A DNA stretch of 32,000 nucleotides, taken from positions 5,670,001-5,702,000 of the forward strand of contig CP001848.1 in NCBI GenBank assembly GCA_000025185.1, in the 5' to 3' direction. Shown in pieces: positions 2,487 to 32,000 of the stretch. The stretch is from Pirellula staleyi DSM 6068 (lineage in GTDB: Bacteria; Planctomycetota; Planctomycetia; Pirellulales; Pirellulaceae). How positions within the stretch are numbered: position 1 is the first letter of the stretch; each line of letters starts with the position of its first letter. Both the position numbers and the translations under genes were made by a program. The notes under the pieces are model-generated. The model had not been told where the DNA came from and did not search any database. It saw only the letters and a program-made list of their open reading frames with translations.

Positions 2487-2924
2487 ATGTCGAGCGTAGC
2501 AGGAACAGGATCGACAAGCGGAGCTGGCGCGACGACCAATTCGGACAAGCCTAAATCGCTTGAGGACCTCGGCATTGACGAGTTTCTGCAGCTCATGATC
2601 ACGGAGCTGACGAATCAAGATCCACTGAATCCTATGGACAACGCACAGATGGTCGAGCAGATCGGCCAGATTCGCGAAATTGCCTCGAACGACAAGTTGT
2701 CGCGGACACTCGATTCGGTTCTCACCGGCCAAAGCCTCACGACAGCCAGCGGGCTGATTGGCCGAGAAGTGACAGCCCTCGATCTCAACAATGAGAACGT
2801 GGAAGGGATTGTGGATCGGGTCTCGATTGAAGTCGACGAGGATGACGCGACCAAACGAACTTACAAAGTGCACATCGGCGACAAAGAAATCGACCTGAAG
2901 AACATTCGCGAGATCAAGGAATAG
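2487..2924 (+). CDS. flgD: flagellar hook assembly (capping) protein FlgD
   Basis: 145 aa. N-terminal FlgD signature LGIDEFLQLMITELTNQDPLNPMDNAQMVEQIGQIREI. AGGTGA ribosome-binding site. Sits immediately before flgE. Confidence 0.85.
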   Translation: MSSVAGTGSTSGAGATTNSDKPKSLEDLGIDEFLQLMITELTNQDPLNPMDNAQMVEQIGQIREIASNDKLSRTLDSVLTGQSLTTASGLIGREVTALDLNNENVEGIVDRVSIEVDEDDATKRTYKVHIGDKEIDLKNIREIKE

Positions 2925-2928
2925 CAGG

Positions 2929-2968
2929 ACGCGCGCAAAAGCGCAATAAGTTGCGCTTTTGCGCGCGT
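2929..2968 (+). promoter_or_regulatory. perfect 17-bp stem / 6-nt loop hairpin between flgD and flgE (attenuator, RNA-stability or processing element)
   Basis: acgcgcgcaaaagcgca (2929-2945), loop ataagt (2946-2951), tgcgcttttgcgcgcgt (2952-2968). The arms are exact reverse complements. The hairpin starts 5 nt after the flgD stop and is followed only by a short tt-gaa tail, so it is not a textbook intrinsic terminator. Confidence 0.5.
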
Positions 2969-3094
2969 TTGAATACGAGATGAAACAGTTTTGAATTGGA
3001 CTTAGGCAGGTCGCTCGGCTGTTCCCGCCAACAGCTATCGCACCAGCCTTTCACCTGAACGATCACACTCACCTTCCCTCGGGAGGATTTTGAC

Positions 3095-5542: not shown

Positions 5543-5576
5543 TCATCGCGGCTGACGGGTCGTAACGATTAAACCA

Positions 5577-5607
5577 GCCGTGCGGTTCGAACCAAAGAAC
5601 CGGCGGC
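5577..5607 (+). promoter_or_regulatory. interrupted stem-loop after flgE
   Basis: gccg-tg-cggttc [gaaccaaa] gaaccg-g-cggc gives 10 bp of pairing with a small internal loop, 35 nt after the flgE stop. There is no U-tract, so the function is unknown. Confidence 0.25.
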
Positions 5608-5733
5608 CAGTACTTATGGTTGATTCCCATCCCCTAGCAGTTTCAGTGACCTACGTTTCCGCATCCGATTCCTACGAGCAAGTGAGATTGCTCCGGAATC
5701 AGTTGTTTTTGTTAGTGATGGAGAGTGACGCCG

Positions 5734-5967
5734 GTGATCAAGCTCACGCGACTCGACGGTGAACGGTTCGTGCTGAATGCCGAACTGATTCGCTACGTGG
5801 AATCGCGGCCTGATACCTTCGTGACCCTCACCAGTGGCGAACGGATGGTGGTTCGCGAGTCGATGGACGAGGTGATGAGCCTCGCCATCCAGTATCAGCA
5901 GAGCAAGTTTCTGATTCCGCTCCCCGCAGGCGCCGGATCATCGCGACAAGCATCGTCGGCGAAATAG
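5734..5967 (+). CDS. flbD: flagellar protein FlbD
   Basis: GTG at 5734 is preceded by GGAGAG (5720-5725). The product (M)IKLTRLDGERFVLNAELIRYVESRPDTFVTLTSGERMVVRESMDEVM matches the FlbD family pattern (MIxLTRLNG...PDT.ITL.nG....V.ES.dEV). It lies directly upstream of motA, as in Borrelia. The ORF-track start at 5725 is an alternative GTG. Confidence 0.85.
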   Translation: MIKLTRLDGERFVLNAELIRYVESRPDTFVTLTSGERMVVRESMDEVMSLAIQYQQSKFLIPLPAGAGSSRQASSAK

Positions 5968-5994
5968 TCGCGCGAGGAGTAAGGAAGCACACTT

Positions 5995-6774
5995 ATGGAT
6001 ATCGCAACAATACTTGGGTTGATTATTGCCTTCGCCATGATGGGCGCCTCGGTCATCATGGGTGGTGGTAGCTTCGCCTCGTTCTGGGACACCGCCTCGG
6101 TGCTGATGGTTTTCGGTGGTTCACTTGGCACCGTCATGGTCTGTTTTCCCATGAAAGTGATCTTGAAACTACCGAAAGTAATGATCAAGAGCGCGCTCAA
6201 TAAACCGCCCGATGTAAGTGCGTTGATCTCACAAATTGTCAGTTTGGCTGAAACTGCCAGACGTGATGGGCTTCTCGCGCTGGAGGCTCGCATCGGCGAG
6301 ATTCAGCATCCACTGATTAAGCTCGGCATTCAAATGTCGGTCGACGGAAGTCGTCCCGAAGCGATTGAAGAAGTGATGCGCACCGAAGTTGAATCCCTTT
6401 CACTACGCCACAAAGAAGGCAAAGGGATGCTAGATCAAATCGGCCGTTTCGCACCAGCTATGGGTATGATTGGGACGCTACTGGGGCTCATCATCATGCT
6501 CGGTAACATGAGCGATCCCTCGGCGATCGGTGGTGGTATGGCGGTGGCACTTATCACGACACTTTACGGTGCAGTGATTTCGAACGGATCGATCCTTCCG
6601 ATGGCCGAAAAACTGGCCTACGTGACGAAACAAGAGATTATCGCCAGCGAAATCATCATTCGTGGCATCATGGCCCTGCAGTCCGGCGAGAACCCGCGAC
6701 TGATCGAGCAAAAGCTCAACACGTTCCTCCCTCCTGCTGTCCGTAAAGCAAAAGAAGCGAAGGAGGGTAAATAG
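5995..6774 (+). CDS. motA: flagellar stator protein MotA
   Basis: 259 aa polytopic membrane protein. MotA/TolQ/ExbB-type C-terminal half: GRFAPAMGMIGTLLGLIIMLGN...AVALITTLYGAVISNGSILPMAEKL. GGAGTAAGGAAG upstream of the ATG. Confidence 0.9.
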   Translation: MDIATILGLIIAFAMMGASVIMGGGSFASFWDTASVLMVFGGSLGTVMVCFPMKVILKLPKVMIKSALNKPPDVSALISQIVSLAETARRDGLLALEARIGEIQHPLIKLGIQMSVDGSRPEAIEEVMRTEVESLSLRHKEGKGMLDQIGRFAPAMGMIGTLLGLIIMLGNMSDPSAIGGGMAVALITTLYGAVISNGSILPMAEKLAYVTKQEIIASEIIIRGIMALQSGENPRLIEQKLNTFLPPAVRKAKEAKEGK

Positions 6775-6776
6775 CG

Positions 6777-7562
6777 ATGGCCATTGAAGAAGATCCACCA
6801 GCAGGCATTCCCGAATGGGTCGTGACGTTTGGCGACATGATGTCGCTGCTCCTCACGTTCTTCATTCTGCTTGCTTCGATGAGCGAGATTAAGCAGAACG
6901 ATAAGTTCCAAGGTGTCGCCGACTCGATGCACGAGCAGTTTGGCTACGATAGCTCTATGTCTCACGTTCCCGGCGAGATGTCGCCACGCAACTCCAGCAT
7001 GGCAGCCATGGCGCTCACCGGCCGGGCGAAGCGCGCCAAGGTGGTGCAAGGTGGTGTGAAGTCGAAAGGGACGACGGGCGAGAACCAACACGTTCGCATC
7101 GTACGACCTGGCGATCGAACCACGATTGGCACCGTGGTCTATTTTTCCGAAGACTCGGCCACTCTCTCGGAAGATGCCGAGGTCGATCTGCTCGGAGCAG
7201 CAGAAACATTCGCTGGCAAACCCCAAAAGATCGAACTTCGTGGACACACATCGCGCGGCACACCCGCCGCCGATAGCGTTTTCAAAGACAACTGGGAACT
7301 CGCCTACAAACGTTCGCTCGCGGTCATGCATGTCCTGGTCGATCGGATGAAAATCGATCCCAAGCGGATTCGCATCTCGGTCGCTGGCCCGTTCGAACCG
7401 GTTCACACAGGCATCGATCCCGAGAAGCTCAAACAGAATCCCCGCGTCGAAGTGTTCCTGCTCGAGGAACTGGCCGACGATCTCGACGGAACCCCCGACG
7501 ACAAAAAAGAACGCTACGAGTTTGTTCCCCCAGCGACGGAAGCAACCGAAGCGAGCGAGTAG
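6777..7562 (+). CDS. motB: flagellar stator protein MotB
   Basis: ATG 2 nt after the motA stop, with AGGAGGG inside the motA 3' end. N-terminal PEWVVTFGDMMSLLLTFFILL carries the conserved channel Asp next to the TM helix. C-terminal OmpA-like region (LRGHTS...NWELAYKRSLAV). Confidence 0.9.
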   Translation: MAIEEDPPAGIPEWVVTFGDMMSLLLTFFILLASMSEIKQNDKFQGVADSMHEQFGYDSSMSHVPGEMSPRNSSMAAMALTGRAKRAKVVQGGVKSKGTTGENQHVRIVRPGDRTTIGTVVYFSEDSATLSEDAEVDLLGAAETFAGKPQKIELRGHTSRGTPAADSVFKDNWELAYKRSLAVMHVLVDRMKIDPKRIRISVAGPFEPVHTGIDPEKLKQNPRVEVFLLEELADDLDGTPDDKKERYEFVPPATEATEASE

Positions 7563-7725
7563 CAAGTGGCCGCAAGTTGGGCATAATCGCGCCAAAGCGA
7601 TCGAATCCAAACGCCGCATGCACGAAGAAAAAAGCTACGTTTTCCAAAGACGTCTACCTGACGAGTGAGTAGAGACCGCAATGGCCACGGATGGTTAGCG
7701 GCTCCGATAGTGGAGTACGATAACC

Positions 7726-8226
7726 ATGAAGTCGATGCTGGTAATGATTGTGGTGTGCGTGGTCATCTTGACCGAATGCGCTGTGGCCTACGTTTTGATT
7801 CCTAGCCCTGAGGCTCTCGAGGCAGCCGCCACGAAGTCGAGTGAGGAAGCAGAAAAAGCTGCCAGCGATGCTAGCACCACCACCGATGGCACGACCCCAA
7901 CTGCCGCCGAGATGGAGGTTGATCTGGGGAAGTTCAACGTCGTGGTGCATCAGCCCGGCGCAAACCTCACGCTCCGTATCAACTTCCATCTGATTGGCAC
8001 CGTTCCCTCGGAAAAACACGAGGAATTCGGCAAACTGCTGACGCACAATCAGCACCGCTTGCGCGATCAAATCATCTACGAAATCCGTAATTCGGCCATC
8101 GCCGACCTCACCGATCCCGGATTGGGCTTGATCAAACGGCGGATTTTGGCGAAAAGCAACGACCTCCTCGGCGCGCCGATGCTGACCACGGTTGTGTTCA
8201 GCGATTTCTCGTTCATCGAGCAATAG
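7726..8226 (+). CDS. fliL: flagellar basal-body-associated protein FliL
   Basis: 166 aa. Single N-terminal TM (MLVMIVVCVVILTECAVAYVLI), then a FliL-like domain (VDLGKFNVVV...LRINFHLIG...HNQHRLRDQIIYEIRNS). Positioned after motB. Confidence 0.8.
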   Translation: MKSMLVMIVVCVVILTECAVAYVLIPSPEALEAAATKSSEEAEKAASDASTTTDGTTPTAAEMEVDLGKFNVVVHQPGANLTLRINFHLIGTVPSEKHEEFGKLLTHNQHRLRDQIIYEIRNSAIADLTDPGLGLIKRRILAKSNDLLGAPMLTTVVFSDFSFIEQ

Positions 8227-8315
8227 TCGCGGCCGGAGAAGGGAACCTCTCGTCGCGCCTACCAAGGATGTTGTAGAGCGCGCGAGTGACTTGCTCGTGA
8301 TCGGAAGGGACTCCG

Positions 8316-8954
8316 ATGGGTGGCTCGGAACAAATCGGCCAGGATGAAATTGAAGACCTGCTTCGCCAGGCACAAGCCGCTGCGCAAGGTGGTAAGCCTG
8401 CGCCTCCACCCAAAGCGCCAGCCGATCCGCAGTCTCTCGGACAAGACGAGATCGAGGCCTTACTCGCACGCTCAGCCCCAGCTGCTGCAGCCGCTCCAGC
8501 ACCAGCACCGGTGGCCGTAGCACCTCCCCCTGCCCCACGTCCCCAAGCTCTCCCCCCAATGTCACAAGTGGGGGACGACATTCAGTTTCTTCTAGCGCAG
8601 GCCGAGCAAGCGATCGCCTCGGTCGATCAACCGGTCGATCCCGCGATTGCCGGAATCGCCCCCTTTGCTTTTCGCGATCTCGCAGCAGCTCCTCCGTCGG
8701 GTGAGAAAGCCACGCTCGAACTTCTGCGCGATGTCGATCTCGACTTGCGGATCGAACTCGGCCGCACCGAGATGTTTCTCGAAGATGTGCTGAAGCTGCG
8801 CCGCGGATCGGTCGTCACGCTCGACAAGCTCGCAGGCGATCCCGTCGATATTTATGTGAATGGCCGGCTCATTGCGCGCGGCGAAGTGCTGGTGCTCAAC
8901 GATAACTTTTGCGTCCGCGTGGCCGAGCTACTCAGCGGAGACGATTTCAAGTAA
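8316..8954 (+). CDS. fliN: flagellar motor switch protein FliN with an extended N-terminus carrying two CheY-binding-like peptides
   Basis: C-terminal SpoA/FliN domain [66 protein letters not shown]. The N-terminal ~130 aa are Pro/Ala-rich and contain [10 protein letters not shown] and [18 protein letters not shown] Shine-Dalgarno. Confidence 0.9.
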
Positions 8955-8987
8955 ATCGCCGTAAAAACAAGCGATAAACGACTACTT

Positions 8988-9014
8988 TTGCGATTCATCC
9001 TAGAGAAATCGCAA
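8988..9014 (+). promoter_or_regulatory. 8-bp perfect stem-loop after fliN
   Basis: ttgcgatt (8988-8995), 11-nt loop catcctagaga, aatcgcaa (9007-9014), 34 nt after the fliN stop. No adjacent U-tract. Confidence 0.3.
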
Positions 9015-9178
9015 GCCTATCACTTCGCATCTTTTGTTCGGCAAACGATGCTCACTCACTTCAGCTTAACTTTCGAAAAACGACCGAGTACTCAGCCGTG
9101 ACATCTTCCCTCACACAGCACTTGCCCCAGGTGACCACTCGTTGCCTGCGATTGTTGCTGCGCACGGGGGGACTATCG

Positions 9179-9967
9179 ATGCTGGTGCTCATGTCGCAAG
9201 CTCTTTTGCTACTGCTGGCAAGCACTGCATCAGCCCAATCGAGCAATCACTATGCCCCGCCAGGAGGTTTCTCGAGCCCCGAGCGTCCGGCATCGTTCTA
9301 CGGCAAGCCCATCAATCACGATCGCCCCTTGGTGGCCGAGCAACCAGTCGACCCGCGAGCGCGTCCCGCGACCAACTACGCCAGTGCTCCACTCCCCTCG
9401 CGGAGCGCAAGTGAGCCAGCTAGTTTCTCCGCGCCTGAGCAGCCCCTTCCAATTGCTAACGCTTCCGCAGGCAGCTCGCTGAAGCTCCCTCCGCGTCAAG
9501 CCCCCAAAACACTCGAGCGCGCGAAAGCTCCGACATCAAGCACCAGCGCCCTCATGACCATGGGTGGCGCACTGGCCGCAGTGCTCGGACTCTTCTTCTG
9601 CCTCGTTGTGCTGAGCAAAAAGTTTCAGCCCGCCGGTGGTGGTGCCCTCCCCAAAGAGGCCATCGAAGTGCTGGGGCGCACCGCGCTTGCCGGTCGACAG
9701 CAGCTGCAACTCGTGCGCGTGGGTGGCAAGCTGATCCTCGTTGCTCTCACTGCAGGGAGCGCAGAAACGCTCACCGAAATCACCGATCCTCACGAGGTCG
9801 AACGTCTCACCGCCATGTGCCGTCGCTCACAACCGGGCAGCAGCACGCAAACGTTTCAGCAAGTTGTTTCGGAGATCGAGCGCGAGCCCGTTTCCCGAGG
9901 TTTTCTCGGAGAAAACAGCAGTTCTCGTGGCGGCAGCAACGCTGGTTCCGCACGTCGCATCTCGTAG
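9179..9967 (+). CDS. fliO: flagellar export apparatus protein FliO (long form)
   Basis: The FliO core is a TM ([24 protein letters not shown]) followed by [39 protein letters not shown]. It lies directly before fliP. ATG 9179 is preceded by GGGGGGA and opens straight into a signal-like [20 protein letters not shown]. The ORF-track start GTG 9098 is an alternative. Confidence 0.65.
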
Positions 9968-10004
9968 TTTCACACCACTATCCATTCCTGACCGATTGCC
10001 CCTC

Positions 10005-10898
10005 ATGCTTCTGATCATTCAGCATCGATGCACACTCCTACTCGCAGCTCTGCTGCTTGTAGCGGCGGTGTCGCACACGCATGCTCAGGACGTGATGGGC
10101 CCGAATCTGCTCCCTTCGATCGACCCGACTCAAGAACTTGCTGACGGGGAGCTCGATCGCGAACTGATGCCCCCGGCTGATCCCGTCACCGAACTTTTGC
10201 GCGGCAATGGCGAAGCGCTCACGAGCCCTAAGCGGCTCAGCAGCACGCTGCAGATCATGCTGCTCTTGACGGTCCTCAGCCTTGCACCAGCCATCTTGTT
10301 GATGACCACCAGCTTTGTCCGGATCGTGGTAGTGCTCGGTCTCCTTCGTCAAGCGCTCGGCACCAACCAGTTGCCACCGAGTCAGGTGATCACTGCACTC
10401 GCGATGTTTTTGACGCTGCTGATCATGACCCCCACCTGGAACAGCGTCTATCACGAAGCGATCGAGCCCTACACCAGCGGCGCCGACCTCACTCCCGAAG
10501 AAGCCTGGAATCGTGGCTCGCTTCCAATCAAACGCTTCATGAGCCGCCAGATTGAAGTGGCTGGCAACAGCGATGATGTGTGGCTGTTCTACGAGTATCT
10601 GCCCGAAGAAAATCGCCCCGCCAAACCGCCAGAAACCTACGACGAAGTCCCTCTCTCGGTCCTTCTTCCTGCGTTCATGCTCAGCGAACTGAAGACCTCG
10701 TTCTTGATTGGCTTTCAGATCTACTTACCCTTTTTGATTCTCGACCTCGTGGTCTCGAGCGTCACGATCTCGATGGGCATGATGATGCTGCCACCGGTCA
10801 TGATCTCGCTCCCGCTGAAACTTCTGCTGTTCGTACTGGTTGACGGCTGGACACTGACGGTCCGCATGTTGCTCGAAAGTTTTGCGGGTCCTCTTTAG
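10005..10898 (+). CDS. fliP: flagellar type III export apparatus protein FliP
   Basis: 297 aa from ATG 10005. The frame is open from 9741, but that stretch overlaps fliO. Signal peptide [28 protein letters not shown]. Canonical FliP core [62 protein letters not shown]. Confidence 0.95.
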
Positions 10899-11030
10899 CT
10901 AGGAGCCCCTGCGCGCGCATCGCTCGTTTCTTATGAATGAATGATTGCCACGCTACTCGATGATCACCGTTTTTGTACTCGTCGTTACCTTCCGCTACTT
11001 CCGACGTTCCCTCCGAGAAAGAAACTGGCG

Positions 11031-11306
11031 ATGGATCCGCAAGACGCAGTCACACTCACCCAGCAAGCCATGATGACAGCGCTGGTGCTTTGTGCGCCGC
11101 TGCTCCTCGTCGGCATGCTCGTGGGTCTGCTCATCGGGCTCGCTCAAGCACTCACCCAGGTGCAAGACCAAACGGTCGCCTTCGTTCCGAAACTCGTGGC
11201 GATGGTGGCGGTGATGCTCCTCTGCTTGCCGTGGCTCATCGAGCAAATGATGGAATACTCCACCAATCTGTTCACAGGCATCCCTCAAATGATCATGGGA
11301 AGCTGA
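11031..11306 (+). CDS. fliQ: flagellar type III export apparatus protein FliQ
   Basis: 91 aa from ATG 11031. Two hydrophobic helices and the FliQ/SctS-like motif LAQALTQVQDQTVAFVPKLVAMV. Sits between fliP and fliR. Confidence 0.9.
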   Translation: MDPQDAVTLTQQAMMTALVLCAPLLLVGMLVGLLIGLAQALTQVQDQTVAFVPKLVAMVAVMLLCLPWLIEQMMEYSTNLFTGIPQMIMGS

Positions 11307-11368
11307 AACTTCGCTGGACGCACCTTTGCGAAAACAGCCGTTTTCGCTTGAAATTCGGGCCCTACTGC

Positions 11369-12202
11369 ATGTCTCCCCTCATCACGTCGCAGCTAGATCA
11401 AATTGTGATCTTCTCGCTCGTGCTGACGCGCATCGGGATGCTCGTTTTCATTCTCCCGATGTTTGGTTCGAGCAGTGTGCCGATGCAAGCTCGCGCGATA
11501 CTAGCGATTGCAATCGCGCTGATCCTGACGCCGGTCTATGCGGGAGCACTTCCGTCTCCGCCAGAAAATCTGATGATGCTCGGACTCATGCTCGCGCGTG
11601 AGTCGATGCTGGGACTCGCGCTCGGACTAGCGGTGATGATCCTGCTGGCAGGGATGCAGCTCGCCGGATCGATCATCAGTCAGATGAGTGGCATGACGCT
11701 TGCCGACGTTGCCAATCCGACGTTCGATACGAGTGTTCCCATCTTCTCGCAGCTGCTCGAAATGTTGTCGCTCGCGATTTTCTTTTCACTGGGTGGACAC
11801 CGCCTGGTGATGTCCGCGCTGCTCGATACGTTCAAGTTCATGCCTCCGGGACAAGCCACGTTTCCGGAAGAGGCGGTCGAGATGCTGGCGACTATTTTCA
11901 CCCACAGTTTTGAAATTGGGATTCGCGCCGCAGCACCTGCCATCATCTCGCTACTGCTGGCCATTTTGGTGGTCGCGCTCATTAGTCGCACACTTCCGCA
12001 GCTGAACTCGGTGGCTGTCGGCTTGAACTTCAACGCCATGATTGTGCTGGCGATTCTGGCACTTTCGCTCGGATCAGCCGCGATGGTCTTTCAAGAAGAA
12101 CTCGAGCCGACGATCGTTTCGATCACGCAGTCGATCTTGATTCCGAGCGACAGCCAGGTGGCAAGTGAAACGGCTGATTTACGCGTCTATCCCTCAGAAT
12201 AA
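11369..12202 (+). CDS. fliR: flagellar type III export apparatus protein FliR
   Basis: 277 aa from ATG 11369 (MSPLITSQLDQIVIFSLVLTRIGMLVFILPMFGSSSVP...). Polytopic membrane protein between fliQ and flhB. The upstream part of the 409-aa ORF overlaps fliQ and looks like out-of-frame sequence. Confidence 0.9.
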   Translation: MSPLITSQLDQIVIFSLVLTRIGMLVFILPMFGSSSVPMQARAILAIAIALILTPVYAGALPSPPENLMMLGLMLARESMLGLALGLAVMILLAGMQLAGSIISQMSGMTLADVANPTFDTSVPIFSQLLEMLSLAIFFSLGGHRLVMSALLDTFKFMPPGQATFPEEAVEMLATIFTHSFEIGIRAAAPAIISLLLAILVVALISRTLPQLNSVAVGLNFNAMIVLAILALSLGSAAMVFQEELEPTIVSITQSILIPSDSQVASETADLRVYPSE

Positions 12203-12246
12203 GTCGATTTTCTTCTTCCATTTAACGATCATTCTTCAGCAGATTC

Positions 12247-13338
12247 ATGGACGACGATAACGGAGAAAAGTCGCACGAAGCAACGCAGCATCGCCGCGAT
12301 AAAGCGCGCGAGGAAGGGCAGGTCGTTAAGAGTCAGGATCTCACGTCGGCTGCGATGCTGATGGCTTGCCTGCTTTTGCTCTGGTACTTCAGCAGCGGCA
12401 TGTTCGAACTAGTGGGAGCCTTTACACGCGATCAAATCACGGGCCAGTTGTGGCAGCCGATCACGCTGGCGGATGTGACGAGCGACTTTGCACGAATCGG
12501 TGGACTTCTCGCTCGCACACTGCTCCCTCTGCTGCTGATGATGATGCTCGCAGCAATCACCATTCAGCTGTCGCAAACAGGATTTCTGTTCCTGCCGAAC
12601 AAGCTGGCGATGGATCTCGAGCGGATTAATCCGCTGAACAATTCCAAGCGAATCTTTGCCGTCTCGAATCTCGTGAGCCTCGGCTTTGGACTACTGAAAG
12701 TGCTGCTGATTGGTGTGGTGGCTGGGCTCTCGCTCTGGCAGCAGCGCGCGACGATTTTAGAGCTGACCGATCAGTCGGCAGCTGTGATTGGCAAGTTCGT
12801 GCTGGAAACGGCACTCTGGACGAGCATCAAGATTGCAGCGGCGCTACTGGTGCTCGCGATCCTCGACTATGGCTACCAGTGGTGGAAGCACGAGCAAGAT
12901 CTCCGCATGACCACGCAGCAGGTGCGTGAGGAGATGAAAGAGCAAACGGGCGATCCGCAAACAATGCAGCGGCGGAAGCAGATTCAGCGTCAGCTGGTGA
13001 TGAATCGGCTGTCGACCAGCATCCCGAAAGCGGACGTCATTGTGACGAATCCCACCGAGCTTGCGATTGCGCTGCAGTACGATCCCAACACCATGCCGGC
13101 CCCCATTGTGATTGCCAAAGGGGCCGGTGTTTTAGCGCAGCGCATCCGACGTTTGGCGCTGGAAAACAACGTGCCGGTGGTCGAGCGAAAAGAACTCGCG
13201 CGGGCTTTGTATCAGCTGGTGGAAGTGAACCAGCCGGTCCCTTCCGAGCAGTATGCTGCGGTCGCTGAAGTGGTTCGCTACGTCTATCAGCTGAAGGGAA
13301 AAAAGCTCCCCGGCACACGCGCTAAATCAGCAGCCTAA
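12247..13338 (+). CDS. flhB: flagellar type III export switch protein FlhB
   Basis: 363 aa. N-terminus GEKSHEATQHRRDKAREEGQVVKSQDL, followed by four TM segments. C-terminal domain ADVIVTNPTELAIALQYD...PIVIAKGAGVLAQRIRRLALENNVPVVERKELARALY. Confidence 0.95.
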   Translation: MDDDNGEKSHEATQHRRDKAREEGQVVKSQDLTSAAMLMACLLLLWYFSSGMFELVGAFTRDQITGQLWQPITLADVTSDFARIGGLLARTLLPLLLMMMLAAITIQLSQTGFLFLPNKLAMDLERINPLNNSKRIFAVSNLVSLGFGLLKVLLIGVVAGLSLWQQRATILELTDQSAAVIGKFVLETALWTSIKIAAALLVLAILDYGYQWWKHEQDLRMTTQQVREEMKEQTGDPQTMQRRKQIQRQLVMNRLSTSIPKADVIVTNPTELAIALQYDPNTMPAPIVIAKGAGVLAQRIRRLALENNVPVVERKELARALYQLVEVNQPVPSEQYAAVAEVVRYVYQLKGKKLPGTRAKSAA

Positions 13339-21606: not shown

Positions 21607-21869
21607 CCCCCGAGTCCCCATGATTTCTGGGCTCTCAGCCGCACAAGCCGTCGCCAGGTAAGTAAGGGGAAAAATCTTTCCCTGGGGATGAACTTCATCT
21701 GGTCGCGCTGGCACTCTATCAAGCATAATTGTGAAGTTCGGGAATCTGGCCCGTTTTGGCTGCCAGTCCCCTCCTCGATCACCCGCCAGAAGAGTTACGA
21801 AGGTCTCCCCTTCACTTGGCTCTTCCAGCCCGTCCCTGGGTTTGCCCTCGAAGCGTGGAAGCACCTGCC

Positions 21870-22946
21870 ATGAGTTTATCGCGACGCCATTTTCTCTCCG
21901 CCGCTGCTGCTGGCACTCTGGCCGCACCGCTGCTCGCGCCTCGCGCGGCCCATGCTCAGGCGGAGGTAGACGAGGCCCGTTCGATCGACGTCATCACCCC
22001 CGACACGCAAAAAGCAATCGACCGTGGACTCGCCTGGCTCTCGAAGCGACAAATCCTCTCGGGTCGCAACAAAGGCGCTTATGGCCACGGTGGCTATGCC
22101 GGCGGCGTCGCCGTTTCGAGCCTCTCGGGACTCGCCTTCATGTGCAGCGGCAATCCACCGGGACAAGGTCCCTACGGAAAGTCGATCGATCGCAGCGTCG
22201 AGTTCATCACCAGCTGCGTGCAAGATAGTGGCTACATTTCGGTTCCCGGTTTTGGCCAGGACAACATGTATGGTCACGGTTTCGCCACGCTCTTCCTTTC
22301 CGAAGTCTACGGAATGAGCGATCGCAGCGACATCGATACCACGGTGGGGGAGAAACTCCGCAAGGCGGTGAAGCTCACCATCAGCTGTCAAAACGATCAA
22401 GGTGGCTGGCGCTATCAGCCGCAGAAGAGCGACGCCGATCTTTCGATCACCATCTGCAACATCATGGGTCTGCGTGCCGCCCGCGATGCTGGCATTCATG
22501 TTCCGGAAGAGGTCCGCGACAAGTGCATCGACTACGTGAAGAAGAGCCAGAACGGCGATGGTGGCTTCCGCTATCAAATCACTTCCGGGGGTGGCAGCAC
22601 GTTTCCGCTCACCGCCGCAGGTGTTGTTTCGCTCTATAGCGCGGGGATCTACGACGGCGATCAAGTCGAAAAAGCGCTCGCCTGGCTGATGAAGTACATG
22701 CCCGGTAGTGGCTCGGGCAACACCGGCTACTTCTTCTATGGCCACTACTATGCCGTGCAAGCGATGTGGCACGCCGGTGGATCGCACTGGCAAAAATGGT
22801 ATCCCGCCATTCGCGATCTGCTGCTGAAGCGTCAATCGGGCGATGGCTCGTGGAGCGACAGCGAGGTCTGCAGCGAGTTCGGCACCGCCATGGCCTGCAT
22901 CATCCTGCAGATGCCCAACAACTATCTCCCCATCTTCGCGCCGTAA
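21870..22946 (+). CDS. Tat-signal prenyltransferase/squalene-oxidase-repeat (alpha-alpha toroid) protein
   Basis: 358 aa from ATG 21870. Twin-arginine signal MSLSRRHFLSAAAAGTLAAPLLAPRAAHAQ. Three QW-like repeats: QNDQGGWRYQ, QNGDGGFRYQ and QSGDGSWSD. Confidence 0.7.
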   Translation: MSLSRRHFLSAAAAGTLAAPLLAPRAAHAQAEVDEARSIDVITPDTQKAIDRGLAWLSKRQILSGRNKGAYGHGGYAGGVAVSSLSGLAFMCSGNPPGQGPYGKSIDRSVEFITSCVQDSGYISVPGFGQDNMYGHGFATLFLSEVYGMSDRSDIDTTVGEKLRKAVKLTISCQNDQGGWRYQPQKSDADLSITICNIMGLRAARDAGIHVPEEVRDKCIDYVKKSQNGDGGFRYQITSGGGSTFPLTAAGVVSLYSAGIYDGDQVEKALAWLMKYMPGSGSGNTGYFFYGHYYAVQAMWHAGGSHWQKWYPAIRDLLLKRQSGDGSWSDSEVCSEFGTAMACIILQMPNNYLPIFAP

Positions 22947-23379: not shown

Positions 23380-24861
23380 ATGCGAATGATTAGTATTCTT
23401 TCCTCGAGACAGTCTCGCGATTGGGGCCTGGGTGCGCTTGCACTAAGTGCTGTTTGGAGTGTGATGGCGCTCGCGCAAGAGTCGTCTCCCAGCCTCTTCA
23501 CACCTCCTTACCCAGCTACCGAAGAGGCCATCGCCTCCCCTTCCGACGCGGTGGTGAGCGACTTGCCGTGGGAGTCCGCCACACAGCCTGCTGCGCCGGC
23601 TTCGTATGAAGCCTTGGCTGAGGACGATGCCTCGCTGGCCGATCGACTGAAAGCGGTGGAGGCAGAGCTCAAAAAACTACGCGAAGCGGAAGCGAAGAAA
23701 AAAGAAGACGCCGCCAAGAAGCCTACGATGACTCTTGGTGGACAGTTGCAAGCCGACGCGATTTGGTTTGGCCAGGACCAAGCCAACATGAATGCTGTCG
23801 GAGACCTCGAAGATGGCTGGGCGTTCCGGCGTGCTCGCATCGTCTCGCGCGGTGAAGCATTCGATGTGGTCGAGTATCAATGCGGCTTCGATTTCGCGCT
23901 TTCGGGTCGTCCCAGCTTTCTCGACGTTTGGGTGGGACTGAAAGATCTGCCCCATCTCGATTCGCTGCGCGTGGGACATTTCTTCGAGCCCTTCAGCTTG
24001 GAGCGACTCACCCAGAATCGCTACAACACATTCCTCGAGCGATCGGTGGCCGATAGCTTTGCCCCCGCGCGCAATCTAGGGCTGATGGGAAGCCGGGCGA
24101 TTTTCGAAGAACACGTGACACTCGCCGCAGGTGTGTTCCGCAGCGACAGCGACGTGCTGGGAGACGACACCGGCGACGATGGCGAACAAGCGGCAACTGC
24201 CCGCGCAACGTGGCTGTCACACTACGACGAAGCGTCGGGAGGAGCGAGCTACGTCCACTGGGGACTCGCCTATAGCTATCGCGATACCGACGAAGGGCGC
24301 GTTCAGTTTCAAGCGAGGCCGGAAGTTTCGCTCAACGCGCTCGGCGAAGGGACGGTTCCCAGTTTCGTGAACACTGGTTTCATACCGGCCGATCACTACC
24401 AACTCTTCGGGATGGAATTTGCCTGGATTCAGGGCCCTTTTTCAGTCCAGAGCGAAGTGATGCTCGTTCCGGTCGACCGCCTCGCGGGGGACGATGTGAC
24501 GTTCGAAGCGGCCTATATCTACGGCAGCTATTTCCTCACCGGCGAGCATCGTCCGTATATTCGCAAAGTCGGCTTCATGGACCGCGTGATGCCGTTTGAA
24601 AACTTTTTTCATGTCAAAACGGAAGAGGGAACGATCGAGACCGGCAAGGGAGCGTGGGAAATTGCCGCGCGGCTGTCGTACATCGATCTCGACGACGACA
24701 ACATCGCCGGTGGCGAACTCACCGACTTCACGCTCGCACTCAACTGGTACCTCAATCCCTACACCCGCGTGAAATGGGAATACATTCACGCTCATCTCGA
24801 TCGCAATTCGGTCGAGAGTAACGCTCAGATTGCGGGCATGCGATTTGACATCGACTTCTAG
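23380..24861 (+). CDS. outer-membrane porin, phosphate-selective porin O/P-like
   Basis: 493 aa. Signal peptide (...ALSAVWSVMALAQE). Coiled-coil LADRLKAVEAELKKLREAEAKKKEDAAKK. Then a Porin_O_P-like start MTLGGQLQADAIWFGQDQ...WAFRRARI and a beta-barrel C-terminus ending GMRFDIDF. Confidence 0.75.
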   Translation: MRMISILSSRQSRDWGLGALALSAVWSVMALAQESSPSLFTPPYPATEEAIASPSDAVVSDLPWESATQPAAPASYEALAEDDASLADRLKAVEAELKKLREAEAKKKEDAAKKPTMTLGGQLQADAIWFGQDQANMNAVGDLEDGWAFRRARIVSRGEAFDVVEYQCGFDFALSGRPSFLDVWVGLKDLPHLDSLRVGHFFEPFSLERLTQNRYNTFLERSVADSFAPARNLGLMGSRAIFEEHVTLAAGVFRSDSDVLGDDTGDDGEQAATARATWLSHYDEASGGASYVHWGLAYSYRDTDEGRVQFQARPEVSLNALGEGTVPSFVNTGFIPADHYQLFGMEFAWIQGPFSVQSEVMLVPVDRLAGDDVTFEAAYIYGSYFLTGEHRPYIRKVGFMDRVMPFENFFHVKTEEGTIETGKGAWEIAARLSYIDLDDDNIAGGELTDFTLALNWYLNPYTRVKWEYIHAHLDRNSVESNAQIAGMRFDIDF

Positions 24862-27171: not shown

Positions 27172-30027
27172 CTATTCAGCTTTGCCCGGCTTGAGCAGCG
27201 TGAAGTCGTCGATCGAGCGTCCGAGATAGAGATGGTCGAAGAAGGCAGCTTGTCCATCGACCGCTGAGAACGCGATGCCGGTGAGGGTGAACTCGCCGAA
27301 ATCAGCAAAAAGATCGCGCGTGACAACGGCGAACTTACCTGGGAGCTTTTCGTCGATCACTACGGAAGCGCCGTAGCATTCTCCACCCGGTCCAGCGTGG
27401 TAGCGAAACTTGGCACCTTCGCGACCAGTCCCCCCGGGTCCCCAAGTGCCGTCATGATTCAGCTGCAGGCAAATCGAGTTGCCCCCCTGCTTGCGCCAAG
27501 CGAAACGAAGGTAGCGAAATTCGCCGGGGCCAGGATTCTCGCGAATCTTGATCCCCTCGGCAGCTGGCACTTGGTGCTTCTGATCGGGCGTGATTTTCAG
27601 CCCCGCTTTGCCGGAGTATTTCTGGCGTTCATCGAGCTCAACCTTGCCTGCTCCTTGCGTCAGCGTGGCGACAAATTCGGGCTCGTCTTCGAAGATCACT
27701 TGCGGCTGTTCAGCGACAGGCTTAGTCCCTTCGATCACCTCAATCTCCACTGGAATCGAAGCCGAGCGAACTGAAGTAGCTGACACCGGCGGCTGAATTA
27801 CGACGAGTGTCGCGCCCGCAATTTTTTGCGGCTTCACTGCAAAGGGGAAGCGAACTTCAAGTTCGAACTCGTTTTTATCAGCTGGGATAATCGCCACCGG
27901 CGCGGTGAGGCCCTTCGGCAAGTTCTCGAGCGTGACAGCCAGGTCGCCAGTAAAACCGAATTGACGAACGATGGCGCCGGTGAATTTGCCGGTCTCACCA
28001 TCACCAGCTTTTGCCTGGATCATCGGCGGCGAGCTGAGTGTTGCAGAAAAGGGTACAACGGTTTCAATACGACGGACCGGTGTAACGACACTTGCGAGCA
28101 CAGTTTTCCCGTCGGCTGAAACCAGTTCGGCTTCGATCGCAATATCCCAAGGTTGTTTGGGAAGATCGGCGGGAACCAGCAGTTGGGCGACGACATCGGA
28201 CGTGACGGCATCCATCAGTTCGGCCGATTCAAGACGGAGTGTACGCTCGACATCATCGACCACTTGATCGGCGTTGTTCACCTTCACCGTCTTTTTGGGC
28301 ATCTGCTGCGTAGTGATCGCCTTCAAGCGATACTTGGCCCCCATCGCGCTGCTGGTGAGCTTGAGGGGAATCGCCAGTTTGTTGCCGAGCGGCAATCGAT
28401 CGGCGTCGTTGGCTTGCCAAACGATTTCGAGTGGCGATTTCTCGGCAATAGCGACGGCAAATTGTGTTCGCAAATCACCTCGCATCGCGGTGCCAGCGTA
28501 CGGAACAAACGAGGCGACGCGCGAGACAGTACCATCGGGCGAAGTGCCGAGGACACGAACACCAGCGGCCCCTTTGGCATCGGCTGCAGCAGCGAGGACC
28601 ACGATGGCACTGCTAGAACCTTCGGCGACGAGATTTCCCGAAACTGTGATGCCAGCGGGAAGTCCCAGGAACTTGAGTTCGATCGGACCGTTGTAGTTGC
28701 GGCGCGTGGCATCGACTCGCACGAGTTGCGCGCTCCCGGCAGCGATGTTCACTTCGCTTCGGGTGAGCAACAGATCGAAATCGGGTCGCGCGAGGTCGCT
28801 GATGGCAAGTCGATAGGTGTGATCGGCACCGGCGCGACGCTGCATGTCGGTGACCACCACTTCGAGCTGCGGTGTATCGCCTGGAACATTGAAATCGAGC
28901 AGCGGATCGGCGGAACCGCTGGCATCGTCGCTCGTGGCGAGCTGCGCGCCTCCCGGCTTGCGGACCGAAAGGACCGCGTCGATCGACGAGCCTACGCGCT
29001 GCGCGAAAACTTGCAGTCGCAACTTTTGGCCAGCGACCACATCAATCAGATATTTGTCGGCTTCACCAGCCGTAGCGAGCGTGCCGGTGACAGCGACAGG
29101 CACCGTCGCGAGAGGCTGTCCTTTTTCGGTGGTTTCAGCGGTTTCAGTAGCCTCGATGAAGTTGCTGACGGTGGCGAGTGGTCGATGTCCCGTGAACCCT
29201 TGCTTGCTGGCGATGGTGGCGAGGATTTCGTCGGACTGTGCGACTTCGGTGGTCGCGGCAGCATCGAGTCGCACCACAGTGCCCGCACTTCCGGAGCTCA
29301 CTTTGGCATCGATCGCTTCGCCCCATTTGACTCCCAGAGGAAGCGTGAGATCGGCATACGAGAGATCGCCGATTTTCAGTCGATAGTAGCCTGAGCCGGC
29401 AGGACGCAGCAGCTGATCGTGGAGCTCGATGGTGTAGTTGCCATCTTCGGGAAGGACCGTTTCGAGACGTGCATCGCCCGACAATTGGCGACGGGGTGGG
29501 CTCCACGCCACTTGTGCTCCGCGATTTCCATAAAGGCGAATCACCGGCTTGAGTCCCGAGCCGATGCGCTGTGCTTCGCAGTCGACCACGAGCTTGTCGT
29601 TCTTCTTTCCGACGAACTCGAATTTCTGTACCACGTTGGCCCCGACACTTCCATGCAGCGCTAGAGGGAGCACGAGAGGAGTTGGCGGCGTGACGAGTTG
29701 GGGCAACGTATCGACCCCAACGAGCACCGGGGCTGAAACACCCTTCGACGATGCCAAGCGGAGTGGGTAGATGCCAGGCTGAGCTTCAGCATCGATCGTG
29801 ATTTCGATTTCAACGCGGGCTGCTGTTGCCCCTGGCTTGATTGTTTGCGATGCGATTTTTACCGGGAGCAAAATCGTGGGGGCGTCGAGCAGATCGGCAC
29901 CGCTGATAACGATGGTGGTGGGCTGGCCGATTTGCAGCCCATGCATCGAGAGCTGAGTGACGCGTGGTGCGGCGCTCGCCACTTGCAGAGCGAAGAGTGA
30001 CAGGAGGATCGAGGTGAGCCACTTCAT
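27172..30027 (-). CDS. large secreted multidomain protein with two pre-peptidase-C-terminal (PPC)-like domains and an unassigned C-terminal beta-rich domain
   Basis: 951 aa. Signal peptide MKWLTSILLSLFALQVASAAP. PPC-like modules at about aa 122-219 (...KFEFVGKKNDKLVVDCEAQRIGSGLKPVIRLYGNRGAQVA...DGNYTIELHD...YYRLKI) and aa 313-409 (GTLATAGEADKYLIDVVAGQKLRLQVFAQRVGSSIDAVLSVRKPGGAQLATSDD...HTYRLAI). GGAGG Shine-Dalgarno before the ATG on the minus strand. Confidence 0.8.
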   Translation of the reverse strand: MKWLTSILLSLFALQVASAAPRVTQLSMHGLQIGQPTTIVISGADLLDAPTILLPVKIASQTIKPGATAARVEIEITIDAEAQPGIYPLRLASSKGVSAPVLVGVDTLPQLVTPPTPLVLPLALHGSVGANVVQKFEFVGKKNDKLVVDCEAQRIGSGLKPVIRLYGNRGAQVAWSPPRRQLSGDARLETVLPEDGNYTIELHDQLLRPAGSGYYRLKIGDLSYADLTLPLGVKWGEAIDAKVSSGSAGTVVRLDAAATTEVAQSDEILATIASKQGFTGHRPLATVSNFIEATETAETTEKGQPLATVPVAVTGTLATAGEADKYLIDVVAGQKLRLQVFAQRVGSSIDAVLSVRKPGGAQLATSDDASGSADPLLDFNVPGDTPQLEVVVTDMQRRAGADHTYRLAISDLARPDFDLLLTRSEVNIAAGSAQLVRVDATRRNYNGPIELKFLGLPAGITVSGNLVAEGSSSAIVVLAAAADAKGAAGVRVLGTSPDGTVSRVASFVPYAGTAMRGDLRTQFAVAIAEKSPLEIVWQANDADRLPLGNKLAIPLKLTSSAMGAKYRLKAITTQQMPKKTVKVNNADQVVDDVERTLRLESAELMDAVTSDVVAQLLVPADLPKQPWDIAIEAELVSADGKTVLASVVTPVRRIETVVPFSATLSSPPMIQAKAGDGETGKFTGAIVRQFGFTGDLAVTLENLPKGLTAPVAIIPADKNEFELEVRFPFAVKPQKIAGATLVVIQPPVSATSVRSASIPVEIEVIEGTKPVAEQPQVIFEDEPEFVATLTQGAGKVELDERQKYSGKAGLKITPDQKHQVPAAEGIKIRENPGPGEFRYLRFAWRKQGGNSICLQLNHDGTWGPGGTGREGAKFRYHAGPGGECYGASVVIDEKLPGKFAVVTRDLFADFGEFTLTGIAFSAVDGQAAFFDHLYLGRSIDDFTLLKPGKAE

Positions 30028-30109
30028 GGAAGCCTCCGGGAGAGAGTTGCGGCAGGTTGGGCGCTGCTGACGAATCGTGCTGCGGCGCGGCGGGAGGAAA
30101 CTGGGGCGG

Positions 30110-30151
30110 AGACGAAAACAGCCGCACCGAGATGATTTCGGCAGCGGCTGT
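30110..30151 (-). terminator. candidate rho-independent terminator downstream of the DPF-repeat gene
   Basis: acagccgc (30118-30125) and gcggctgt (30144-30151) are exact complements, with an inner ccga/tcgg pairing. Read on the minus strand, the stem is followed by TTTTCGTCTCC. It lies 65 nt after the repeat-gene stop and 90 nt before the 951-aa gene start. Confidence 0.4.
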
Positions 30152-30215
30152 CGCTCGTTAGTCGGCGAGTGCGAAGAGGGGAAATCGCACGCGCCTCATA
30201 AGGTCGTCGTGAACG

Positions 30216-30672
30216 CTATTCAGCAAACGGATCGTCGCTCGGCGCTGGGGCTGGCGCAGGTGCCGGAGCAGCTGGCGCGGCTGGAGCAGCAGGTTCCTCA
30301 GCGAACGGATCATCGCTCGGAGCAGCGGGAGCTGGGGCCGGTGCGGGAGCCGCTGGTGCTTCTGGAGCATCGTCAGCAAACGGATCATCGCTTGGTGCTG
30401 GGGCTGGAGCAGGTGCCGGAGCAGCAGGCGCGGCTGGAGCAGCGGGCTCCTCGGCGAACGGATCATCGCTCGGAGCAGCGGGAGCTGGGGCTGCAGGTGC
30501 AGGAGCGGCGGGTGCTGCGGGTGCTGCTGGTTCTTCAGCGAACGGATCTTCCGAAGGTGCTGGAGCCGGTGCCGGTGCTGGTGCTGCAGGCGCTGGAGCG
30601 GCTGGTGCCGCTGGTTCCTCGCCAAAGGGATCATCGCTCGGTGCAGGAGCTGGTGCTGGCGCAGGAGCTGCA
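30216..30672 (-). repeat. degenerate 75-84-bp coding periodicity (DPFA-type units)
   Basis: aacggatc anchors recur every 75-84 nt. A 38-nt identical stretch gcgaacggatcatcgctcggagcagcgggagctggggc occurs at both 30301 and 30454 (153 nt apart). Confidence 0.6.
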
Positions 30673-32000
30673 GGCTTCACAGGAGCAGCGGGAACTGCTG
30701 GTTCATCACCGAAGGGATCGTCACCAGCGGGAGCTGGTGCAGGTGCTGGCATCGGAGCAGGAGCTGCGGGGGCAGCAGGCTCTTCACCAAACGGATCGGC
30801 ACTGGGTGCAGGAGCAGCTGGCTTTTCTTCGGCTGGCATCTCAGCAGCAGGTGCTGCGGGGGCTGGAGCTGCCGGTTCAGCGCCAAACGGATCATCGCTC
30901 GGTGCTGGGGCAGCTGGTGCGGCTGGCTTCACAGGAGCAGCGGGGGCTGCTGGTTCATCACCAAAGGGATCGTCACCAGCGGGAGCTGGGGCAGGTGCTG
31001 GCATCGGAGCAGGAGCTGCGGGGGCAGCGGGCTCTTCACCAAACGGATCGGCACTGGGTGCTGGGGCAGCTGGCTTCTCTTCGGCTGGCATCTCAGCAGC
31101 GGGTGCTGCGGGGGCTGGAGCCGCTGGCTCGGCGCCAAACGGATCATCGCTCGGTGCTGGGGCAGCTGGTGCGGCTGGCTTCACAGGAGCAGCGGGGGCT
31201 GCTGGTTCTTCGCCGAAGGGATCAGCAGCGCCTGGTGCAGGTGCTGGCATCGGAGCTGGGGCGGTTGGCTCGGCACCGAAAGGATCGTCACCAGCAGGTG
31301 CAGGAGCAGCTGGCTTCTCTTCGGCTGGCATCTCAGCAGCAGGTGCTGCGGGGGCTGGAGCTGCTGGCTCAGCGCCAAAGGGATCCTCAGCGGCGGGTGC
31401 CGGTGGAGCTGGCATCGGGGCTGGTGCAGGAGCAGCGGGGTCAGCACCAAACGGATCTTCACCAGCAGGCGCTGGCATCGGAGCCGGTGGAGGCGATGCT
31501 GGGTCGGCTGGCATTGGGGCTGGAGTGCCAAACGGATCTTCACCAGCAGGCGCTGGCATCGGAGCCGGTGGAGGTGTTGCTGAGTCGGCTGGCATTGGGG
31601 CTGGAGTGCCAAACGGATCTTCACCAGCAGGCGCTGGCATCGGGGCCGGTGGAGGCGTTGCTGGGTCGGCTGGCATTGGCAGCGGAGCAGCTTCGCCCGA
31701 CTCAGGCAACGTGGCAGGAGCCTCGGCACCACCAAACGGATCGCTTGGGTCGGCCTTCGGCGTCACACCTGGAACTGCTGGAGCCGTGCGCGTCGGGTCG
31801 CGAAGCACTTCGTCTTCAGCACGTTTGGTCTCTTCGTAACGAGCTTTGTCGCGCGTCGTTTCTTGGTTGTAAACACTCAGGCGGGCCGAGCGGCGGGCCC
31901 CTTCAATCGCCATCCGATCGCCACCTTGGATGCGTTCCAAGCTGCGACCAATCGGAATCGGCAATCCACCCACGACTTCGAGTTCGGCACCCGTTTTGAA
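30216..32000 (-). CDS. Pro/Ala-rich intrinsically disordered-type protein with 19 acidic DPF(G/A) motifs; 5' end outside the window
   Basis: Minus-strand frame with its stop at 30216-30218, open to position 32000. The codons above the listed GTG at 31973 read ...FKTGAELEVV with no stop. A non-repeat charged segment RMAIEGARRSARLSVYNQETTRDKARYEETKRAEDEVLRDPTRT is followed by ~500 aa of P/A linkers with DPFG x14 and DPFA x5. The strand choice is supported by silent-site divergence between repeat copies (see findings). Confidence 0.75.
   Translation of the reverse strand, partial: FKTGAELEVVGGLPIPIGRSLERIQGGDRMAIEGARRSARLSVYNQETTRDKARYEETKRAEDEVLRDPTRTAPAVPGVTPKADPSDPFGGAEAPATLPESGEAAPLPMPADPATPPPAPMPAPAGEDPFGTPAPMPADSATPPPAPMPAPAGEDPFGTPAPMPADPASPPPAPMPAPAGEDPFGADPAAPAPAPMPAPPAPAAEDPFGAEPAAPAPAAPAAEMPAEEKPAAPAPAGDDPFGAEPTAPAPMPAPAPGAADPFGEEPAAPAAPVKPAAPAAPAPSDDPFGAEPAAPAPAAPAAEMPAEEKPAAPAPSADPFGEEPAAPAAPAPMPAPAPAPAGDDPFGDEPAAPAAPVKPAAPAAPAPSDDPFGAEPAAPAPAAPAAEMPAEEKPAAPAPSADPFGEEPAAPAAPAPMPAPAPAPAGDDPFGDEPAVPAAPVKPAAPAPAPAPAPSDDPFGEEPAAPAAPAPAAPAPAPAPAPSEDPFAEEPAAPAAPAAPAPAAPAPAAPSDDPFAEEPAAPAAPAAPAPAPAPAPSDDPFADDAPEAPAAPAPAPAPAAPSDDPFAEEPAAPAAPAAPAPAPAPAPSDDPFAE
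30673..31395 (-). repeat. 252-bp tandem repeat, about 2.9 copies (84 codons, three DPFG motifs per unit)
   Basis: The anchor ggcttcacaggagcagcgg occurs at 30673, 30925 and 31177, spaced exactly 252 nt. By hand alignment, units 1 and 2 differ at about 13 positions with no indel (~95% identity). Unit 3 is more diverged and carries a net 12-nt deletion. Confidence 0.85.
31447..31689 (-). repeat. 81-bp tandem repeat x3 (27 codons, unit EDPFGTPAPMPADxAxPPPAPMPAPAG)
   Basis: The anchor ccaaacggatcttcaccagcaggcgctggcatcgg occurs at 31447, 31528 and 31609. Units 1 and 2 differ at 3 positions. Confidence 0.85.

Follow-up and report, generated by a model that had tools for sequence, protein, structure and literature searches.

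The stretch of DNA analysed here, referred to hereafter as the window, comprises 32,000 nucleotides of the Pirellula staleyi DSM 6068 genome (contig CP001848.1, positions 5,670,001 to 5,702,000). At its right-hand end lies a real protein-coding gene, a minus-strand open reading frame (ORF; 30216-32000) of 594 codons plus stop that stays open to the window edge. Its product, the TPR-DPF protein, is predicted to join the end of a tetratricopeptide repeat (TPR) domain to a long tail with 19 copies of an acidic Asp-Pro-Phe motif, and it belongs to a planctomycete family in which that motif is conserved in orthologues while the linkers between copies differ. The reading that we favour, and to which we give about an even chance, is that the protein is an exported, TPR-anchored, multivalent array of short linear motifs in which each copy presents an epitope to a folded partner. 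Two parts of this reading are inferred: the binding role of the motif and the identity of its receptor.

Translation of the minus strand agreed with an earlier note, made on this DNA from its letters, that the frame runs off the edge with 19 motifs, 14 DPFG first and five DPFA last, and ends in SDDPFAE-stop. The motifs have the form [S/G/A][D/E/A]-D-P-F-[G/A] and occupy residues 87-590 of the translated part; the first DPF lies at 31734-31742 and the last at 30225-30233, with two residues between the last motif and the stop. The array is regular, as the note had described, but its spacing of 21-41 aa is slightly wider than the 24-33 aa given there. An acidic residue (Asp or Glu) stands at +2 or +3 in 15 of the 19 motifs. 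The repeat region of 509 aa contains 179 Ala, 167 Pro, 39 Glu, 37 Asp, 23 Gly and 19 Phe, and every Phe falls within a motif. Ala and Pro together make up 68% of this region, acidic residues (76 Asp plus Glu) far outnumber basic ones (six Lys plus Arg) and the pI is about 4.05. In 20,000 shuffles that preserved composition, DPF occurred 0.45 times on average and four times at most, compared to the 19 copies observed.

The residues that precede the array, which had been taken for a short charged non-repetitive segment, turned out to belong to a conserved folded domain, of which they form the C-terminal half. Residues 1-85 comprise the final pair of TPR-like helices, which carries the conserved IGRSLERIQGGDR motif, followed by a long charged helix that runs to VLRDP. 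Because hhalign places the first 71 residues in the window at columns 62-133 of the family profile (probability 99.6%), the window must lack about 90 residues at the N-terminus, which make up the signal peptide and the two TPRs that come first. Of the 39 proteins found in a database search, 38 share one architecture: a signal-peptide-like start, a domain of about 100 aa with invariant YGxGVH, DPR and ERxQG, a long charged helix ending near VLRDP and a low-complexity DPF[G/A] tail that stops with its final motif or a few residues past it. Species-representative genomes were scanned with a 5-sequence alignment as query (the 23-sequence family alignment was too divergent) and yielded 78 family loci. 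With taxonomy taken from record titles, all of these, like the 39 database proteins, belong to Pirellulales-type Planctomycetota, in the genera Anatilimnocola, Pirellula, Rubripirellula, Rhodopirellula, Stieleria, Roseiconus, Bythopirellula and Lacipirellula and in the Thermoguttaceae. One locus, labelled 'Phycisphaera sp. RhM' (L052), shares with the Stieleria and Rhodopirellula loci both its gene order and the DPFGGDPFGN at the end of its family protein, which suggests that the genome bin is mislabelled or contaminated. Members are recorded publicly as 'hypothetical' or 'tetratricopeptide repeat protein'. The earlier note had recognised no characterised bacterial family, and this was borne out in that no Pfam or NCBIfam model covers the TPR-DPF proteins; nothing on them was found in the literature on Planctomycetes or Pirellula.

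The N-terminus that the window lacks was examined in the orthologues, where a Sec-signal-peptide-like start is followed by the TPR domain. Such a start was present in 113 of the 115 complete N-termini and a lipobox-like sequence in only two of the 115, and on these grounds the TPR-DPF protein is predicted to be exported (periplasmic or envelope). The family profile matched TPR proteins in the PDB at E = 1e-23. In the AlphaFold2 (AF2) model of one orthologue (P0001), helices span residues 21-41, 45-57, 63-75, 79-95 and 112-152 with a predicted local distance difference test score (pLDDT) of 85-98. The best fold matches were to three-repeat peptide-binding TPRs (Hip, Hop, CHIP, SGT and SycD/PcrH; probability 1.0, with a weak E of about 2e-3). 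The N-terminal domain is thus modelled as a three-repeat TPR, of which the window holds only the last repeat and the capping helix. In size and fold (three helix pairs plus a capping helix) it resembles Hop TPR1/2A, CHIP, SGT, Hip and SycD/PcrH, whereas the fold matches are weak and those proteins are cytosolic while the family domain is predicted to be periplasmic. As judged from a manual alignment, the two Asn of the 'carboxylate clamp' that serves Hsp70/90 binding appear to be replaced by hydrophobic residues, and the basic pair of the third repeat appears to be kept. The tail, which the earlier note had called disordered, is predicted to be so: that of P0001 has no secondary structure in the AF2 model and a pLDDT of 50-72.

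In a comparison of 112 distinct family tails containing 1106 Phe, the DPF motif itself, and not just the Pro/Ala composition, was found to be conserved in very divergent orthologues; conservation of composition alone, which the earlier note had named as a refutation, was not what was seen. The Phe was preceded by DP in 74% of cases and by NP in 7% (81% D/N-P), and followed by Gly in 63% and Ala in 19% (82% Gly or Ala). Acidic residues are enriched around the family motif at -3, +2 and +3, Asp and Glu making up 31% of residues at +2 and 23% at +3, and Trp and Tyr are nearly absent from the tails. The median spacing of the family motif is 21 residues (interquartile range 14-30), and 88 of the 112 tails end 0-3 residues after their last motif. 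The linkers differ by clade: they are Pro/Ala-rich in the window protein, Lys/Ala-rich in P0021, rich in Ser, Asp and Glu in Bythopirellula, and those of Rhodopirellula and Stieleria are short and rich in Gly and Asp. The motif of Rubripirellula is NPF in place of DPF. A closer orthologue, from a locus whose partner protein (see below) is 73% identical to that of the window, keeps DDPFAE-stop with changed linkers and with DLF at some motifs. Within the window and about 0.95 Mb of related loci, two or more such motifs were found in no further ORF. Taken together, the alignments indicate that selection acts on the motif and not on composition.

These comparisons bear on whether the tail might be a passive spacer or polyanionic brush, in which only length, stiffness and negative charge would count and DPF would be a by-product of duplication. 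The forms considered were a TonB/TolA-like linker spanning the periplasm, which the earlier note had offered as the more ordinary alternative, an entropic bristle and a cation buffer. The extreme composition of the tail, with its net charge of about -70, is what such a spacer would be expected to show, as are the highly variable length of the array, its recent tandem duplications and a motif with no known receptor. Like the TonB and TolA spacers, the tail is a long, Pro-rich, low-complexity segment of an envelope protein. The spacer reading is weakened, however, because the motif is kept while linker length and composition differ between clades; moreover, Phe is nearly restricted to the motif and the chain stops just past its last copy. 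The TPR-DPF tail is acidic, where the TonB and TolA spacers alternate Glu-Pro and Lys-Pro, and it contains a conserved Phe motif. Membership of the TonB/TolA group was rejected: the orthologues have a signal peptide followed by the TPR domain, with no N-terminal membrane anchor, no TonB_C or TolA domain or other folded domain at the C-terminus, and no Pfam match there. We therefore regard a passive spacer as unlikely.

The DNA of the array is itself repetitive, and three tandem arrays were found with TRF (Table 1). The 252-nt duplication is a probable sign of recent expansion. Because of these arrays the motif copies in the window are in part recent duplicates, and their number overstates their independence. 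Even so, motif codons differ synonymously between copies (Pro CCG, CCC or CCT; Phe TTT or TTC), which shows that the minus frame is constrained at the amino-acid level. Across the family the number of motifs varies from 1 to 19, and repeat number differs between proteins with near-identical N-termini (P0007 and P0010; P0001 and P0002). Two members (P0011 and P0019) have a long DPF array N-terminal to the TPR domain and a short one after it, so the array behaves as a movable module. In about 30 of 121 members the tail is interrupted midway by one Pro-free amphipathic segment, perhaps a helix that binds membranes or else a second motif. Examples are P0003, P0008, P0016 (GSLFRAFTKAIP), P0017, L043 and L044 (the last three with GQLFFALGQWLGS), L085 (2811-3920) and L086 (2854-4053); neither the window protein nor its closest relatives have it.

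Both strands are open across the repeat, with a 640-aa antisense ORF on the plus strand (30077-31999), and in two related contigs (L083, 72-587; L084, 2-730) the antisense frame had been called as the gene in place of the DPF frame. One might thus suppose that the minus frame is a chance product of GC-rich repeats, or that the antisense ORF is the true gene. Only the minus frame, however, runs on into a conserved domain, a TPR domain common to more than 100 homologues with signal peptides, and it has a conserved stop directly after the last motif as well as the synonymous variation described above. The conserved domain and the conserved stop exclude an antisense artefact, and the probability that the gene is not real is negligible. 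The two contigs with the closest homologues of the partner protein (73% and 99% identity) both terminate inside the DPF array (L083, 1-832; L084, 1-911). The repeat breaks short-read assemblies, and the same cause may account for the gene being cut at the window edge. An exact 60-nt search of genome contigs for the missing N-terminus gave no match. In practical terms, DPF arrays fragment metagenome assemblies and lure gene callers onto the antisense strand.

Table 1. Coordinates of the TPR-DPF gene, its repeats and the adjoining gene in the window.
Feature	Position	Strand	Basis
TPR-DPF array protein, partial coding sequence (C-terminal 594 aa; stop at 30216-30218)	30216..32000	-	translation, 39 homologues, profile alignment
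End of folded N-terminal domain (aa 1-85)	31746..32000	-	hhalign, AF2 of orthologue, TPR profile and fold matches
Acidic Pro/Ala-rich tail, predicted disordered (aa 86-594; 19 motifs)	30219..31745	-	motif positions, shuffles, AF2 of orthologue
Tandem duplication, 2.9 copies of an 81-nt unit (27 aa, one motif), 96% match	31447..31679	.	TRF
Tandem duplication, 2.9 copies of a 252-nt unit (84 aa, three motifs), 89% match	30673..31385	.	TRF
Degenerate tandem array, period about 84 nt, 5.3 copies, 70% match; encodes the five DPFA units	30220..30646	.	TRF
Spacer, 188 nt, between the DPF gene and the 951-aa gene	30028..30215	-	hairpin scan
Partner gene: 951-aa secreted protein, about eight predicted beta-sandwich domains and a conserved C-terminal domain	27172..30027	-	synteny, AF2

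If the TPR-DPF protein is a motif array as we propose, the three-repeat TPR domain and the long charged helix would form a folded 'handle'. From it the acidic, disordered Pro/Ala chain would display many copies of the unit acidic-D-P-F-G/A-acidic, and the linkers would serve as spacers only. The Pro-Phe of each motif would insert into a pocket on a folded partner domain, and the chain could bind several copies of the partner, or one partner with high avidity. The outcome would be a partner tethered or clustered in the cell envelope. The candidate receptors, in order of their support for the window, would be the 951-aa protein encoded downstream, planctomycete SHD1 domains (SH3-fold) and the groove of the protein's own TPR domain (self-assembly).

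Such a chain resembles the motif arrays of eukaryotic endocytosis (DPF/DPW in Eps15, epsin and AP180; NPF in epsin/Ent1) in its many Asp/Asn-Pro-Phe cores with acidic flanks, its predicted disorder and a spacing in the order of 20-30 residues, and some TPR-DPF members use NPF. It has the multiple DP[FW] motifs in a disordered region (19 DPF; orthologue tail unstructured in AF2) that characterise ligands of the AP-2 appendage. Those ligands are, however, cytosolic and meet an adaptor appendage, whereas the TPR-DPF protein is bacterial and attached to a TPR domain, its orthologues carry export signals, and no adaptor-appendage or EH partner is known for it. The likeness is at the level of the motif only and may be convergent. 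The earlier note had also brought in clathrin adaptors, membrane-coat-like proteins and endocytosis-like uptake; we found no link to any of these for this protein, which is predicted to be exported and not cytosolic.

The FG repeats of nucleoporins, with which the note had likewise compared the array, share with it regularly spaced Phe-Gly in disordered linkers. On this basis the tail might form a cohesive mesh in which Phe-Gly sticks to itself or to solenoids, giving a selective barrier or gel in an enlarged periplasm or in envelope pores. The F-G dipeptides at regular spacing, matches to the Pfam Nucleoporin_FG model (sub-threshold or precomputed) and, in one clade, the position of the gene after a 1460-aa membrane-anchored TPR solenoid are consistent with it. 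Membership of that family (PF13634) was nevertheless rejected, at 18.8 bits against a gathering threshold of 32.2. FG domains are low in charge or net basic. The TPR-DPF tail is strongly acidic, and the negative charge around each motif should oppose self-cohesion; furthermore, the conserved unit is D-P-F and not F-G, the Gly being replaceable by Ala, and a quarter of the window motifs are DPFA. A mesh of this kind is decidedly less probable than a passive spacer.

The gene directly downstream, on the same strand, encodes the 951-aa protein, and its association with the TPR-DPF gene is the reason it is called the partner here. A homologue of the partner (23-51% identity) lies directly downstream of a family gene, in the same orientation, in 23 loci, and in front of two more distant homologues (32-33% identity) a family gene is likewise the immediate neighbour. 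The gene pair is present in 25 loci and in the window and holds across deep divergence. In the AF2 model the 951-aa protein is a string of beta-sandwich domains (mean pLDDT 87.5), two of which are PPC/collagen-binding-like. Its fold matches were to Ig/FN3/MG, PPC (collagen-binding), alpha2-macroglobulin-type and S-layer proteins, and an adaptor appendage is absent among the fold matches listed. The protein has no Pfam match above threshold, no NCBIfam or PDB sequence match and no recognisable enzyme domain, and segment-wise Pfam scans gave only sub-threshold PPC and Ig-like hints. The spacer between the two genes contains one weak terminator-like hairpin (30125-30143), which is at chance expectation.

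Other clades place the family gene differently. One arrangement, seen in about 22 loci (Rhodopirellula, Stieleria, Rubripirellula, Roseiconus and related genome bins), has an S41 PDZ peptidase encoded directly upstream, with HtrA and a DUF4013 membrane protein likewise encoded on the upstream side. In a third context, found in 15 loci, the 1460-aa membrane-anchored TPR protein is encoded upstream and a small protein downstream. The neighbours are envelope proteins in all clade contexts.

The S41 adjacency raises the possibility that the TPR-DPF protein is a TPR adaptor of a periplasmic S41 protease, with the TPR domain docking this C-terminal-processing peptidase and the tail acting as regulator, decoy substrate or substrate-recruiting arm. 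NlpI-Prc of E. coli and LbcA-CtpA of Pseudomonas are pairs of this kind, in which a TPR protein is the adaptor of an S41 tail-specific protease. An exported TPR protein encoded beside an S41 PDZ peptidase and a TPR fold of the peptide-binding type would suit such a role. The resemblance is limited to one clade, however. The 32 kb of the window yielded no S41 peptidase, and in the window's clade the family gene has that for the 951-aa protein as its conserved neighbour. The family proteins are not lipoproteins by the lipobox count given above and have a long motif-bearing tail, the PDB profile matches are generic TPRs (NlpI is not among the matches listed), and the need for a repeated DPF epitope would be left unexplained. 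We judge an adaptor role, drawn by analogy, about as improbable as the passive spacer. The same protease neighbours, together with the acid-labile Asp-Pro bond in each motif, could also point to a multi-copy precursor that is cleaved at every motif to free short peptides. Beyond the motif, though, the freed peptides would have no conserved sequence or length, and no maturation enzyme is conserved beside the gene across clades, which makes a precursor very improbable indeed.

The second candidate receptor came to notice through a family in which arrays and SHD1 occur in the same chain. One match of the database search, P0038, has no TPR domain; it combines a D-[P/L]-F-G array with a C-terminal SHD1 domain (Pfam PF03983, 43.3 bits against a cut-off of 23.7), and its genomic context showed no link. 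A word-index search with the SHD1 domain alone gave a single match, whereas 1155 representatives at E < 1e-3 came from a full phmmer scan in which a related SHD1 fragment was the query. At least three D-x-F-[G/A] motifs, mostly DDLFG[T/A]P and some DPFG, were present in at least 57 of the 151 SHD1 representatives examined, and the fusion of array and SHD1 is clearly recurrent in these sequences. A subset (P0042, P0043, P0055 and relatives) has a conserved start, MSK.F.YW.RC..VATL...TFNPAWAGR, followed in order by a Cys-rich segment, a DLFG/DPFG array and the SHD1 domain. This is an unusual exported architecture, apparently uncharacterised.

Yeast Sla1 reads NPFx(1,2)D through its SHD1 domain, and in Ste2p the variant GPFAD also works (Howard et al. 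2002, PMC2199253). Bacterial SHD1 is mentioned only in passing, as an extracellular SH3-fold domain (PMC5906684). The pattern xPF-x(1,2)-acidic fits most window motifs (15 of 19), and planctomycetes encode SHD1 domains, many of them with D-[L/P]-F-G arrays in the same chain. On the other hand, the window protein has no SHD1 domain, its motif starts with Asp and not Asn, no ligand is known for bacterial SHD1, and the window contains no SHD1 gene. A bolder extension would be that Pirellulales have a periplasmic network of short linear motifs of the eukaryotic endocytic type, in which the TPR-anchored arrays and the Cys-rich SHD1 arrays, with the common motif [D/N]-[P/L]-F-[G/A]-acidic, are read by bacterial SHD1 domains, the homologues of that in yeast Sla1. 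The pair of motif and reader would then predate the eukaryotic endocytic machinery or have been transferred to or from it. We think such a network improbable, to much the same degree as a protease adaptor.

Several points weigh against a motif array with a folded partner. No clearly docked motif was seen in the AF2 model of the full-length orthologue, as judged from 10-residue pLDDT averages only. The net charge of the tail could by itself serve a non-specific role as polyanion or cation binder. Adjacency of the partner gene is limited to one clade. With regard to SHD1, the ranking from which the 57 motif-bearing representatives were counted was biased, since the query itself held motifs, and SHD1 genes were not enriched near family genes (two profile matches in about 0.95 Mb of related loci plus the window, with no adjacency).

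Eukaryotic trafficking relies, as a central principle of its organisation, on multivalent short linear motifs carried by disordered chains; for a bacterium's own envelope proteins such motifs are, to our knowledge, hardly documented. By analogy, the TPR-DPF protein looks like a bacterial, exported counterpart of such arrays in an uncharacterised family. An order-wide family, predicted to be exported, that holds a DPF/NPF epitope while its surroundings drift, with a conserved partner gene beside it and SHD1 arrays in a sister family, would be relevant to the organisation of the unusually large periplasm of planctomycetes and to whether their eukaryote-like features are convergent.

Several observations concern the rest of the window and the neighbouring loci. 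At the two loci with distant partner homologues, a GT4 glycosyltransferase gene follows the gene pair on the same strand (L085, 6365-7642; L086, 6537-7634). In the window, the gene after that for the 951-aa protein encodes pyruvate kinase on the opposite strand. A flagellar export and hook cluster occupies 644-13338 on the plus strand (a FliK-like hook-length protein, an 815-aa FlgE-type hook protein, MotA, FliO, FliP, a FliR-type protein and FlhB), so the source organism is flagellated. The remainder contains assorted metabolic genes together with those for prolyl-tRNA synthetase, a phosphate-selective porin (Porin_O_P; 23380-24861), pyruvate kinase and, at 21756-22946, a protein that resembles prenyltransferases and squalene cyclases and has a weak match to a twin-arginine signal. 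The order of prenyltransferase-like gene, porin, pyruvate kinase and 951-aa gene is kept in L083, the relative with 73% identity.

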